Assembly: GCA_951406725.2 (NCBI GenBank)
Contig: OX597814.1
Location: 170,066,001 to 170,130,000 of the forward strand
Direction of reading: 5' to 3'
From: Octopus vulgaris
Taxonomy: Eukaryota
Length of the DNA: 64,000 nucleotides
The notes under the pieces are model-generated. The model was not told where the DNA came from. It saw only the letters and a program-made list of their open reading frames with translations, and made no database searches. A program made the position numbers and the translations under genes. How positions within the stretch are numbered: position 1 is the first letter of the stretch; every line of letters starts with the position of its first letter. Positions 12,285-37,765 of the stretch are shown in pieces.

Positions 12285-13393
12285 GTCCATTTGATCGTCC
12301 TCGAAATGAACTGATTGAAGTAAACATGTGTGTGTGTGTGTGTGTGTAGTGAAGGCGTGTACCTTAGGGCAGTGCTACTCAAAGTGGTGGTCTTCAGACT
12401 GGTGCCAGTCCATGAGCCATCAGCTGCCTGTATGCAGTGAGTTTCCAGAAAAGAAAGAAACATTATAAAATGCTTATGTAATATTGTATTATTTGTCAAC
12501 TTTCATTATATTAAATTGTCAACTTTTATTATATTCATTATATATATTGTTTCCGGTATAAATTAATATTACCAAGAAATATTACCAGTCCCTGGTAGAT
12601 TGGAAAAAATACTACCAGTACACCACATCAGATAGTTTGAGAAGCACTGGCTTAGGAGCCTAGGGTATTTGGTTCATGGTTGGGAGGTTGTGAGTTCAAA
12701 TCCTAGAGGCACGTTATGTCCTTCAGCATCACACATTATTTCATGTTGCTCCAGTCCACTCGACCAGCAAAAACAAGTTGTACCTGTAATTAAAAAATCC
12801 GCCCTATAAGTGTGCATATGTCTGTGGAGTATTCAGCCACTTGCACATTCATTTCACAAGCAGGCTTTTTTCCATTGATTTGATTAACTGGGACATTTAT
12901 CATCTTAACTAACAGAGTGCCAGTTGTGTGTGTGTGTGTGTGTGTGTGTGTGTGTGTGTGTGTGTGTGTGTGTGTGGCTGTGTGGTAAGAAGCTTGCTTC
13001 CCAGCCACATGGTTCTGGGTTCAGTCCCACTGTGAAGCACCTTGGGCAAGTGTCTTCTACTATAGCCTCGGGCCAACCAAAGCCTTGTGAGTGGATTCAG
13101 TAGACAGAAACTGAATATATATGTTTGTCCCCCAACCATCGCTTGTGTTTGCATCCCTATAACTTAGCGGTTCGGAATAATTACCAGACTTACAAAGAAT
13201 AAGTCTGAAGGTTGATTTGTTTGACTATAGGTGGTGCTCCAGCATGGATGCAGACAAACGGCTGAAACACTAAAAGAATAAAAGAATAAAAGAATATATA
13301 TATATATATATAACAAAGTGGAGTTGTGGGGTACCGCACGAGTGGAATTATATACGAAAGAAGGTTTGAAAATGCAATTTAAAAGATGTTTAT

Positions 13394-13438
13394 TTACTTT
13401 ACCGGTTTCACTCTTTGGGAAAAGATTGTCAAAAGTAA
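13394..13438 (-). ncRNA. Type I hammerhead, U3-A8 core variant
   Basis: ttactt-TTGACAA-tcttttcccaaagagt-GAAA-ccgg-TA-aagtaa; perfect 6-bp stem I, palindromic ACCGGT. Confidence 0.65.
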
Positions 13439-13915
13439 CATGTGGAAGTTTGGTTGCGTTAATTATTGCTTGTTGCAAATTGCTACATTACATATATATA
13501 TACAGTCTTTGGTAACAGGGACATGTTAAGGACATAAAAAAGTTCAACAAGTTCCTTAAAATATTGGGCAAAAAAGATTACATAAATGCATACACACACA
13601 CACACACAACACATACATATATACATATATATAACACATCTACACATATAAATACATACACACACACAATGCACACACACACACACACACACACACAACG
13701 CACACACACACACACACACACACAACCCACACAACACACACATACATAACATACATATATATAATGCATGCGTGTGTGTGCCGCGTATGTGTGTGGTCAA
13801 TGTCTGCTAGTGCACCCTATGTGTGCTGATGCGTGCATGTGTCTGCTTGCATGATACGGTGCGAGTGTGCGTGTGTATTTGTGTGTTTGTTCTGGATGTG
13901 TGCCTGGGGGGTATG

Positions 13916-14420
13916 TTAGAGTATGTTTAGTTGTGGTCTGTATTTTTGAATAAGATTACTTTCCCTATTTATTCGTGTTTGGTCTGTGGTGTTGTCCGAG
14001 CATTGGTATAGTGGGAAGACTAAGAATTTGGGGGACTTATTGTGTGCACAAAGGTCTAAGTGTCCACTTAGTGGTATCTGTCTTGTGGAGGGGTCCCTCA
14101 GTTGTTGTCGGTGAACTGTCATTCTTTCTCTGAGGATAAGGCTCGTTTGCCCTATGTAGTCTTCGTGGCACCCTTCACACCTTATGATGTAGAGTAAATT
14201 TTTTGATGCGCACGTGGAATTATTTTTTATGATGAATGTGTGTCCCGACCGGAACTTGTACGTCGATCCCTCAATGAGGTGGATGCAAGTCCTGCAGTTG
14301 GGGCGACCACATTTTTTGATGGTGGGCGGTGGGTTTGTGTTGTGTAATTTTGCGTTGGTGAGGAGGTTTTTTAGGGATTTAGGCTGTCTCTTACTTTTTA
14401 TTATTTTATGAGCTGCCAAT
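13916..14420 (-). CDS. Penelope-type GIY-YIG endonuclease (5'-truncated; upstream part of ORF 13916..14548 reads through the inverted arm)
   Basis: CGRPNCRTC linker, NLLYIIRC..C.EDYIGQT..LRERMTVHR, RESNLIQKYRPQLN. Confidence 0.85.
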
Positions 14421-14475
14421 ATGTAATGTAGCAATTTGCAACAACCAATAATTAACGCAACCAAACTTCCACATG

Positions 14476-35016: not shown

Positions 35017-36366
35017 TTATTTATAAGCAAGATAAGTATAGCGCCGCCAGTGGGGGCATCGAAAAGCCGACTGTAAAAGTCCGTTTACCATCCGGTCTCT
35101 GGCGAACAATATATGGAAGAGTTCGGAGACACAAAGGTTGCACTTCCTTCTGCCCCTGTCAAATGGGAGGGCCACCGACAAAATTGACCATTCCAGGCTG
35201 TAGCTTGAGTTCGTATTCTTCAATCGCCATATTAGCTTGCTAAGTCCCGTGGTCTGGCATTTATTCACGTCTCGAAAAGTTGCGTAATGATTGGAGATTC
35301 GTGAGGACAATCTTGACAATGAGGCCCCGACATAAGAGTAGACATCTGAGTCCGTGTAAACCTTACATTGGTAGATGGCGTTTCTGATCTTGGAGTTCAC
35401 CGACGTGAACCTTATTCTATTAGGATTAGTTTCTGAAATTAGAACTGCGTTACTGTTACTATATTTGTTGCGAGAACTGCAGCCGCTTTCTACTTTATTT
35501 TCCACTACGTCACTATTAACTAACGGAATAACCCCTGATTCTACACTATCACTCAGAGTGCTGTCATTGCTAGTGCCCGTGGTGCTGCCATTGCCGGAAA
35601 CGATGCTGGAGTTGCTATTGGGGCTCTCTACCCTAGCGAGCCGAGCTGCGCTCACCTCACTACTGCCATCGCTACCGTCAATGACATCACCCTTATTTAT
35701 AACTATACCCCTAGTATATAATCCCTGGTTGGAGCTGAGATTATGAGTCACTGTACTGGCTCTCATATCATTATTACTACTATTATTATTCCTACTGGGC
35801 GTTAAACCGGGAGCGGAAGAAGCTGTGCCTCCGGAAAAAGGTGGTAGGGTCTTAGTAAGCAGCCTATTATTATGGGAGGCGACTATCTGGGCGAGGTTTT
35901 TAGTGTTGGAGAAAGCTATCCTAACTTTATGCGAATTAACCGTGGAGTAATATTTGGAATTTCTGGGGAAGTTATTGGCGATGGCTTGTCGAAACATGAG
36001 GGGGAGGTTAGTTCTAATCTGCTTACCAAAGGGAATTACAAACCATATATGCTTGTTCCTATTTATGTGATGGGTCGTGACGCCAGCTCTCGCATTCGGG
36101 TGGGTGATTCTCGGATGAATAACGGGTTTTGGGTTAGTGTGAGATCCCCCGGACCGATAATTATCCTTGTTTGCTAAATTAAATGCGGGAGCGACTGCCC
36201 CAGCACCCGCCGCGCTCCCGTCACTACTTAAATTATTAATGTTATTATAGACGGCCCTATCCTGATGACCGAATGATGGCATCGGAAGGGCCGGATCAAT
36301 ATAAATTACCTTCTGCCTATAACCGGCCTTGGATAGTGCGGCGTTATAAAATTCCGCTTTCTGCAT
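35017..36366 (-). CDS. PLE thumb-end/linker plus GIY-YIG endonuclease, no RT
   Basis: FYNAALSKAGY, HIWFVIPF..IRTNL..NFP..VRIAFS..IVASHN, NAIYQCKV..SYVGAS..RISNH..TGLSKLIWRLK..LEWSIL..CNLCVSELFHI..MVN..CPH. Confidence 0.88.
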   Translation of the reverse strand: MQKAEFYNAALSKAGYRQKVIYIDPALPMPSFGHQDRAVYNNINNLSSDGSAAGAGAVAPAFNLANKDNYRSGGSHTNPKPVIHPRITHPNARAGVTTHHINRNKHIWFVIPFGKQIRTNLPLMFRQAIANNFPRNSKYYSTVNSHKVRIAFSNTKNLAQIVASHNNRLLTKTLPPFSGGTASSAPGLTPSRNNNSSNNDMRASTVTHNLSSNQGLYTRGIVINKGDVIDGSDGSSEVSAARLARVESPNSNSSIVSGNGSTTGTSNDSTLSDSVESGVIPLVNSDVVENKVESGCSSRNKYSNSNAVLISETNPNRIRFTSVNSKIRNAIYQCKVYTDSDVYSYVGASLSRLSSRISNHYATFRDVNKCQTTGLSKLIWRLKNTNSSYSLEWSILSVALPFDRGRRKCNLCVSELFHILFARDRMVNGLLQSAFRCPHWRRYTYLAYK

Positions 36367-36623
36367 AAAAATATCGCCCCATATAATACACCAAATATTC
36401 TTTAAATAGTCAGAACTTTAGTCTCGGTCACAAAGAACATCTAAGCACCCCATGCCCCCACCCACCGGAATGACCGCTGCCTGACCCGTTAAAACCTTCA
36501 ACGCACCCACCACCAGTTTTCAACATACATTGATAAACAGTTTGGCCATGGGCTCTTAGGAGCCTCGTTCGATTTGTTTTGCTCCGCCTCTGTTCTGTTT
36601 TTGTTTTTTCCAACGGATTTCCT

Positions 36624-36713
36624 ATTTCTTCCTGAAGAGAAAGACACAATATGGTCTCCTTATTCAATCGGAATTTGGTAAATTGTGCCTTTCAAAACAC
36701 GTGTAGAATGCAA
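36624..36713 (+). ncRNA. Hammerhead copy in unit B inverted arm, G12 mutated to A
   Basis: CTGAAGA at 36632; GAAA reads AAAA at 36694. Confidence 0.65.
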
Positions 36714-37765
36714 TAAAACGATTTCTGTTCAATCTTCATTCAACTCCATTTCTTCAATTCACTAATAATATTAAAATTCAATTATCCGCACCAACGCACG
36801 GTTGCAACACCATATGGTTGTACCTCCAACCGTGCTGTCTTCTGCTGTGATTTTTGCTACCAAGGTATCGGTTAAACCTTTGATTAATCTGCAACAAGAT
36901 TATTCATCTTTCTATTTCACAAAATATATATATATATATATATATATATATATATATATATATATATATACTACAGATCTAATAATGAGGGATCATCAAT
37001 TTGGGCAAAATATTTTATAAGCTCTCTGTTGGCACACCAGGCTGTCATTATTGTTGAGATTAGTGAACAACTCCAAGTATTCTTATGACAAGGTCCAAGT
37101 TTATGGTTCATCACAATTCTGTCATTCAACTACGGTAGTAGTTGAATAATATTCTTGAGGCCACAATTTAGTCACATACAGCATCTTTCAGAGCTTATCC
37201 ATAATACAGGTCTTAACTAAATTGAAAACTGTTAACATTTTTTAAGAGAACTGGTCCCTAGCTACATTTTAGCAGACAAAAAATGAGATTTGGTCCAGTA
37301 GAAAAAAATTTACATCAAAATTTGTAGCAATGTTATAGGAGAGTAAGTAACGCTACCAGTCAAGTTTTGATCTAAATAACCTTTTTTTTATTTTTAAAAA
37401 CAAAGTATTTTTTAAACTTTGCTTCAAAGAAACCATGAAGAATTTCATGGTTTTGGCCCCATGCAACAAAAATTTGTATCAAAAAGTTGTGAAAAAATAT
37501 AAGGCAAAAAATTGGATTTAAGGAATTTCATGGTCTCAATCTTATGCAATGAAGTTTTAAAAAAAAAAAAGTGATGAATGTTTGTTTCTCAAATTTGAGG
37601 GTAATAATACAGTTTTATACTGTTTTATGAATATAGTTCTAAAAGGGATTTTTAATTATGTCACCGGTATCATTGAGTTAAGGAAAAAATTATCAATGAC
37701 ACCCCTAATTGATATATTTGACACATTATTAATTAGCACAATAACATGGCCTGGAAAGAACATGG

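Follow-up and report, generated by a model that had tools for sequence, protein, structure and literature searches.

Inverted units with paired hammerhead ribozymes in Octopus vulgaris as probable truncated insertions of Penelope-like elements

The window analysed here, a 64-kb stretch of Octopus vulgaris DNA (contig OX597814.1, positions 170,066,001 to 170,130,000), contains four units that share one layout. Each consists of an arm bearing a hammerhead ribozyme, a 3' region, coding sequence related to GIY-YIG nucleases, and an inverted copy of the arm, with a (TA)n run at either end. The units are named U1 (13313-14563), U2 (14767-17989), U3 (27405-30703) and U4 (34306-36924). An earlier note on this DNA had offered two explanations. 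Are these units the result of a highly stereotyped inversion pathway in the integration of Penelope-like elements (PLEs)? Or, are they propagating non-autonomous elements, in which a nuclease is enclosed by terminal inverted repeats (TIRs) with ribozymes? The evidence points, with a probability of about 0.9, to 3' ends of Penelope-like retrotransposons, three of the Hydra clade and one Neptune-type, each standing head-to-head with an inverted copy of its own pseudo-long terminal repeat (pLTR). They are likely ordinary one-off insertions and not a new mobile element, and they likely do not move again as units.

Structure and coding content of the units

The common layout was borne out by measurement of the inverted arms and of the flanking (TA)n runs, which are present at all eight unit ends (Table 1). 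The arms, first described as nearly identical within a unit, are 147-400 bp long and 98-100% identical: 147 bp and 98.0% in U1, 244 bp and 99.2% in U2 (14881-15124 and 17751-17994, including a few TA letters), 237 bp and 100% in U3, and 400 bp and 98.5% in U4. The DNA of the units is mutually unrelated, with no similarity between them at E<1e-6. Comparison with a profile of Hydra-like proteins, built from the 13 of at least 590 aa among the best 150 matches, confirmed that the reverse transcriptase (RT) core is absent from all four; U4, and probably U2 too, still starts in or directly after the RT thumb. The open reading frame (ORF) is cut at a different point in each unit: at profile position 435 in U4, at ~464 or slightly before in U2, past the YIG motif in U3, and at residue ~606 of a 772-residue relative in U1. 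The expectation of a GIY-YIG nuclease in every unit holds only in part. The nuclease frame is unbroken in U1 and U4, U2 is frameshifted, and U3 is incomplete.

The U1 nuclease matches PF01541 with E 6.8e-6, above the Pfam cut-off. The U1 ORF comprises the last ~167 residues of the protein and matches residues ~606-772 of P0001, a protein of 772 aa with an RT followed by a GIY-YIG domain, at 75% identity over the whole piece. This is the best identity among 15 longer relatives, eight of which have a precomputed RVT_1 domain. Both U1 and P0001 contain a CX4CxxC finger and then a spacer of ~22 residues, as in the Neptune rows and unlike the Nematis rows of Fig. S2 in PMC8557442. These motifs, judged by eye, would make U1 a Neptune-type PLE, characterized by a CX2-5CxxC finger with a long spacer and a CCHH nuclease C-terminal to the RT. 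Neptune is described as paraphyletic in PMC8557442. A JGI metagenome scan with the U1 protein produced 93 pattern matches, none of which was confirmed, and ESM Atlas matches of 0.94-0.96 to unnamed or GIY-YIG clusters serve as a lead only.

U4 begins at the equivalent of residue 133 in P0166 (XP_036366068.1 of Octopus sinensis, 544 aa), to which it is 56% identical over 390 columns. The first 132 residues of P0166 contain RT motifs B, C and E (MG, YRDD and FLDV) and run directly into the U4 start. The RT was judged by motifs because Pfam called none in 11 of 11 Hydra-like proteins. An Asn/Ser-rich insert between thumb and nuclease keeps the frame in U4 and is present in P0166 too. P0166 and three further Octopus sinensis RefSeq models, P0016, P0017 and P0018, are pieces of Hydra PLE ORFs; the names given to these models are 'myb-like protein I', 'probable serine/threonine-protein kinase dyrk1' and DDB_G-like.

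A decayed Hydra RT-core piece adjoins the left (TA)n run of U4, and two Hydra families thereby meet at one microsatellite. The piece was considered as the missing RT of U4 itself and rejected; it belongs to a family other than that of U4, because it is 30% identical to P0166. Past it lies a Tc1/mariner-like remnant (~33160-33870, motifs by eye).

In U2 the linker is 26% N over 382 aa and its frame is kept (16602-17750). The nuclease frameshift falls within a T run near 16620 and could be an assembly error. The U2 piece scores E 0.004 against the Pfam GIY-YIG model, below the cut-off. The coding piece of U3 has neither GIY nor YIG, and hence no complete nuclease. U3 and U4 have no Pfam match, yet both can be aligned to the nuclease of Hydra-like proteins. 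Most of the 3' region of U3 is mixed microsatellite with short unique islands, which may represent captured host DNA or a later expansion.

By eye, U2, U3 and U4 all have CxxC before the E, CxH after the N and no CCHH, which would place them in the Hydra clade; this nuclease signature is given in section 11 and Fig. S2 of PMC8557442. All six ends of these units lie in (TA)n, and both hammerheads and (TA)n targets are reported for the Hydra clade in that paper (Craig et al. 2021, PMC8557442). The CxCX5C linker is missing from U4 and P0166, while U3 starts downstream of it and U2 retains CxC with the third Cys replaced. A looser CxC-x4-8-C pattern is found in 10 of 10 long relatives. Of the DKT and RWK motifs of the Hydra clade, which lie in an N-terminal region that is missing from the units, the DK[T/G/S] pattern is present in 10 of 10 long relatives and R[W/Y]K in 4 of 10. 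The traits of endonuclease-positive PLEs that are found in the units are the C-terminal GIY-YIG nuclease, the pLTR with a type I hammerhead motif downstream of the ORF, the variable 5' truncation, the inverted copy and the tail at one end.

Table 1. Components of units U1 to U4 and an adjoining RT piece, in window coordinates
Feature	Positions	Strand	Content or basis
U1 left (TA)n target run	13294-13312	.	repeat scan
U1 tail, 36 nt, sense arm only	13313-13348	-	
U1 sense pLTR arm	13349-13495	-	hammerhead 13432-13400, U3-A8 core, palindromic helix III
U1 3' region, CA/TG-rich	13496-13915	-	sequence
U1 5'-truncated putative Neptune-type ORF	13916-14418	-	linker end, CX4CxxC finger, complete GIY-YIG
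U1 inverted arm	14419-14565	+	hammerhead 14482-14514, helix III palindrome broken
U1 right (TA)n	14560-14595	.	
U2 left (TA)n	14739-14766	.	
U2 tail, 114 nt, sense arm only	14767-14880	-	
U2 sense pLTR arm	14881-15124	-	hammerhead 15000-14922, long helix II
U2 3' region	15125-16299	-	sequence
U2 5'-truncated putative Hydra ORF	16300-17750	-	linker with Asn-rich insert, frameshifted GIY-YIG
U2 inverted arm	17751-17989	+	intact hammerhead 17875-17953
U2 right (TA)n	17989-18005	.	
U3 left (TA)n	27375-27404	.	
U3 tail, about 69 nt, inverted arm only	27405-27473	-	
U3 inverted arm	27474-27710	-	hammerhead core from 27535
U3 C-terminal part of putative Hydra nuclease	27724-28047	+	begins past YIG motif
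U3 3' region, 2.4 kb, mostly microsatellite	28048-30466	+	sequence
U3 sense pLTR arm	30467-30703	+	hammerhead core from 30642, three-way junction fold
U3 right (TA)n	30702-30792	.	
U4 left (TA)n	34268-34303	.	
U4 sense pLTR arm	34302-34700	-	intact hammerhead 34442-34370
U4 3' region	34701-35016	-	sequence
U4 5'-truncated putative Hydra ORF, 452 aa	35017-36375	-	RT thumb end, N/S-rich linker insert, complete GIY-YIG frame
U4 inverted arm	36374-36773	+	hammerhead 36632-36705 with G12A
U4 tail, 150 nt, inverted arm only	36774-36924	+	contig coverage in all four runs
U4 right (TA)n	36924-36970	.	
Decayed Hydra RT-core piece	33878-34267	-	motifs B, C, E; stop codons; adjoins U4 left (TA)n

Hammerhead ribozymes in the arms

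The proposal that every arm carries an outward-facing hammerhead stands: a type I motif was found in all eight arms, and in each of the four sense arms the candidate pLTR with this motif lies downstream of the ORF. A descriptor composed after the sequences were seen identified five hammerheads in the whole window, all of them inside arms, and a sixth once G12A was permitted. The two hammerheads of U3 were missed by the descriptor and were detected by their core pattern and three-way-junction fold. The background of the descriptor, from 30 block-shuffles of the window, was a mean of 0.07 matches with a maximum of 1. A scan of the window with Rfam at E<=0.1 returned no hammerhead among 119 matches, nearly all of which were microRNA-type models sitting on microsatellites.

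The hammerhead core of U1 is the U3-A8 variant, and the palindrome of helix III is lost in the right arm of this unit. In the right arm of U4 the core carries G12A at 36694, a position at which almost all of the contig depth in four public runs is G. The arms differ within units at 10 positions in total. Four of these are CpG transitions, including G12A, and two of the four fall in ribozyme positions, a pattern that looks like neutral decay with age.

Transcripts of the units had been suggested both to fold into a panhandle and to cleave themselves near their 3' ends. Folding of the panhandle is indeed predicted, with 139 of the 142 nt of the downstream arm of a U1 transcript paired with the upstream arm. 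That both would happen in the same read-through transcript is doubtful, because the two folds compete. The predicted energies of the arm duplexes, -73 to -153 kcal/mol, are ten times those of the ribozyme folds taken in isolation (-5 to -13), and in a read-through RNA the paired arms would hide the ribozyme.

Junctions, outer ends and route of insertion

If the units were fixed structures, copies of one family should share an inner junction between ORF and arm. This was investigated for one family of the four by alignment of public contigs to U4 34701-36923. The three larger runs contained 2627, 5440 and 2408 matching contigs, with identities of 85-100%, which shows that the U4 family is large. 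A wastewater run with a share of 0.06 and rows with values near zero were left out of the alignment, and depth differences between pLTR and ORF carry no weight here, because parts cannot be ranked by contig depth. Eight of the 10 listed joints, and a ninth from a second table, connect ORF to arm, and they do so in nine different places; they differ on both sides, and each was found in one contig of one run. The remaining two listed joints are one within the 3' region and one within the arm, and no skips inside the ORF were present among the listed joints. At one joint the arm is 6 nt longer than that of U4, owing to extra 3'-region sequence, and this joint is not a deletion product of U4 because its arm exceeds that of U4. 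Overlaps of at least 3 nt occur in three of eight joints, compared with ~0.06 expected for each by chance (p about 0.01, simple null). A 1555-nt contig matches U4 36376-36251 without a difference and has 1429 nt upstream, outside the listed alignment; about 1305 nt would be needed for the missing RT part, a comparison that covers lengths only. The junction of U4 itself has a 3-nt overlap (36374-36376) with this ORF-continuing contig.

These results bear on the proposal that some inverted units propagate non-autonomously, the whole arm-nuclease-arm structure being transcribed and copied in trans by the RT of a parent, maybe with the unit's own nuclease. On the inverted arm of U1, read on the minus strand, an ATG is in frame with the complete nuclease, and the intact 452-codon frame of U4 has an ATG at its fourth codon. 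pLTRs alone can mobilize intervening DNA in trans according to PMC3846280, non-autonomous PLE derivatives are reported in PMC8557442 and bioRxiv 10.64898/2026.07.22.740005, and contig joints cannot count copies that have the junction of U4 itself. Even so, the nine further junctions of the U4 family are all different, with no recurrence from run to run, and in three of the nine the start lies within the hammerhead core or past it. The catalytic GIY/YIG half is missing from U3, U2 is frameshifted, and ribozyme positions are decaying by CpG transitions. By a rough estimate, chance could account for an open frame over a 47-codon arm in one unit out of four. We therefore regard propagation as very unlikely. 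Equally improbable is a narrower form, in which a U1-like minority would be RT-less nuclease donors, recopied in trans as a fixed structure with their own nickase and a start codon supplied by the arm. The second explanation of the earlier note, propagating nuclease and ribozyme TIR elements, is thus not upheld, since junctions differ across the units and at the nine joints of the U4 family, the only family covered, and since RT-bearing relatives of U1 and U4 exist. Of these two observations together, diverse junctions and RT-bearing relatives, the full set is available for U4; for U1 it is the RT relatives that were found. From the first explanation, 5' truncation with inversion as a common route of PLE integration is supported, and its layout has been published (PMC8557442). 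At the inner junction the pathway is not stereotyped, and recurrence is confined to the outer ends.

Near-identical inverted ends and TA flanks would also suit TIR DNA transposons that are cut and pasted by the GIY-YIG protein. The arms are, however, unequal at their outer ends in all four units, arm length varies freely among copies of the U4 family, and the proteins are the broken-off ends of an RT-nuclease ORF, where such a transposon would have a DDE transposase. GIY-YIG enzymes are nickases and are not known to act as transposases. This explanation has almost no credibility. Could the inverted structures instead be assembly artefacts in microsatellite-rich DNA? The window is very rich in repeats, assembly problems with PLE structures are noted in PMC8557442, and the junction of U4 itself is unbridged among the contig pieces listed. 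Against this, there are 10 differences between arms, which follow a CpG pattern, and three separate public runs each have contigs in which ORF is joined to arm. An artefact is extremely unlikely.

The outer ends are unequal in every unit. Each has a tail on one arm, of 36 nt in U1, 114 nt in U2, about 69 nt in U3 and 150 nt in U4. U1 and U2 carry it on the sense arm, U3 and U4 on the inverted one. The shorter arm ends in an AT-rich motif that merges into (TA)n, with a TATATA match of 6/6 in U1, where the motif is internal to the inverted arm, and of 5/6 in U2. In all four families a TATAAT-like motif is present at the end of the tail-less arm (13349-13354, 14881-14886, 30693-30703 and 34302-34312), a few tens of nt beyond the predicted point of ribozyme cleavage, and may serve as a TATA box, as a priming site or as both. 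Short words, among them GTACC and GGTTAAC, appear to be common to the tails of these unrelated families.

As to the exact route, we lean slightly toward priming from two strands. The enzyme of a full-length element would make a nick in each strand of a (TA)n run, and each nick would prime one cDNA near the 3' terminus of the RNA, one probably from the end of the tail and the other from the inner AT-rich site. Copying would stop early, at 150-550 nt on one cDNA and at 1.1-3.2 kb on the other, and the ends would be joined head-to-head through 0-4 nt of microhomology. The hammerheads would face outward because the pLTR is copied in both directions. A Poseidon-clade PLE protein is reported in PMC11167929 to nick AT-rich DNA in vitro, to elongate both strands, to initiate at two sites bounding the tail, and to insert without a need for hammerhead cleavage.

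In a competing route the units are likewise truncated PLE insertions, but the inverted arm would form when a single cDNA folds back or primes itself, or would be made on an antisense template, with the tail trimmed later by the nuclease. Self-priming has been proposed for the head-to-head Penelope repeats of Adineta vaga (PMC3846280) and nuclease-mediated resolution for the tail (PMC8557442). Junction microhomology is compatible with fold-back too, and U1 and U2, in which the sense arm is longer, fit it directly. The inverted arms of U3 and U4 contain sequence that is missing from their sense arms, being 69 and 150 nt longer, and fold-back needs extra trimming to account for this. A tail on the inverted arm favours independent priming over fold-back unless a trimming step is added. 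There is no palindrome at the inner junctions of the four units. Fold-back is rather less likely than priming from two strands.

A number of points weigh against reading the units as one-off PLE insertions made by priming on two strands. The start codons of U1 and U4 described above are among them, as is the density of the cluster, with four young inverted copies within 24 kb. The RT-bearing relatives of U1 and U4 are putative sister families and not direct parents, because they are just 56-75% identical. No U4 relatives of 792-2260 aa were found among 7999 candidates, a search that was probably crowded by low-complexity words, and the first 120 residues of P0016 retrieved only P0016 itself among 39 candidates. 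The best matches of U2 and U3 are 30-40% identical (11 proteins tested), and no close RT-bearing relative of either was found, no dedicated search having been made. The U4-family joints rest on sides of 22-30 nt, single contigs and 85% likeness, copies sharing the junction of U4 itself would not register as joints, and no contig bridges that junction among the 32 pieces listed (there are 10,873 further pieces). Finally, U1 and U2 have short ends that agree with (TA)n, whereas the start site of the Poseidon enzyme in vitro is free of homology to the target (PMC11167929).

Relation to known elements and to the rest of the window

The window contains other traces of mobile elements. Besides the piece next to U4 there are two decayed PLE RT-core pieces, one Neptune-type (23-1958, plus strand) and one Hydra-type (4791-5305, minus strand), for a window total of three, and the descriptor found no hammerhead near these two. 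Fold-backs at 58503-58675 (91%) and 62639-63066 (67%) have no hammerhead matches and are perhaps miniature inverted-repeat transposable elements. The sequences at 2393-2733 and 4037-4419 represent two dispersed families of short repeats with many copies in the window, probably short interspersed elements. By eye, transposase-like remnants are present at 10946-11257 and 22420-22995, and a remnant resembling the RT of a long interspersed element at 50265-50640, on which Pfam gave two weak unrelated matches.

An inverted 5'-truncated copy that forms flanking repeats, with a tail at one end, has been published for PLEs (PMC8557442). The supplement of that paper lists Hydra-1_Obim as well as Penelope-13_HM, which has a hammerhead on either strand and a 5'-truncated copy in inverted orientation. 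Like these Hydra-clade elements, U2, U3 and U4 have (TA)n targets, a pLTR with a type I hammerhead, the nuclease signature and the inverted truncated copy. They differ in being RT-less 3' ends, in the long Asn-rich linkers of U2 and U4, in the absence of CxCX5C from U4, and in tails of 69-150 nt in place of the usual 30-40 bp. They would be families other than Hydra-1_oBim, because their hammerheads differ from its listed motif. U1 resembles Neptune-type PLEs in its CX4CxxC finger and spacer, in the order of RT before nuclease in P0001, and in its 36-nt tail; it departs from them in the U3-A8 hammerhead core, which a section of PMC4209133 describes for Schistosoma PLEs.

Several further systems invite comparison. 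Penelope of the rotifer Adineta vaga forms truncated copies flanked by inverted pLTRs, most commonly head-to-head, and has Asn-rich inserts, according to Arkhipova et al. 2013 (PMC3846280). The octopus units are similar in their inverted pLTR flanks, optional one-sided tail, TATA-like pLTR motif and Asn-rich inserts between RT and nuclease, whereas Adineta vaga Penelope belongs to another clade and host and has junction palindromes and target-site duplications; such duplications are unreadable inside (TA)n here. Minimal PLE hammerheads have been described (Cervera and De la Pena 2014, PMC4209133), with the U3-A8 core, weak cleavage that depends on dimers, and pairs on opposite strands that are ascribed to truncated PLEs. 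The units share with them the palindromic helix III that requires a dimer, the U3-A8 variant and the opposite-strand pairs. The pairs are spaced 1.1-3.1 kb apart here compared with 100-700 bp in that paper, the helix II regions of U2 and U4 are 54-60 nt, and helix III of U3 is 4 bp. Non-LTR retrozymes (bioRxiv 10.64898/2026.07.22.740005) likewise have type I hammerheads derived from PLE pLTRs, but they are tandem, in the same orientation and non-coding, unlike the inverted U1-U4 with their ORF remnants.

L1 twin priming, attributed to Ostertag and Kazazian in 2001, is said to use a primer from each strand of the target and to leave microhomology at the inversion point. There, annealing of the second primer within the RNA inverts a segment, whereas in the octopus units both starts are likely near the 3' end and the pLTR is duplicated. 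Among the titles and starts of abstracts surveyed, mostly of non-subscription literature, no RT-less inverted element with nuclease and hammerheads and no twin priming of PLEs was described, and the Asn-rich linker insert was found only in the rotifer Penelope paper and a meeting report. Inverted pLTRs are listed as a known PLE trait (PMC8969392), and recently active PLE families have been counted in Octopus vulgaris (PMC13282606).

The units represent families without names, from PLE clades already described, in an inverted and truncated form that has been published, and their biology is mostly known. The formation of inverted ends and tails in PLEs is termed undefined in PMC8557442, and it is in this context that the units have a modest mechanistic value: a tail on the inverted arm, which is hard to obtain through fold-back, AT-rich short ends that match (TA)n, and microhomology at inner junctions. 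They also extend the Asn-rich linker inserts to a second PLE clade and host. In annotation, copies of this kind can be mistaken for TIR elements, and PLE ORFs stand behind some RefSeq models of Octopus that bear the names of host genes.

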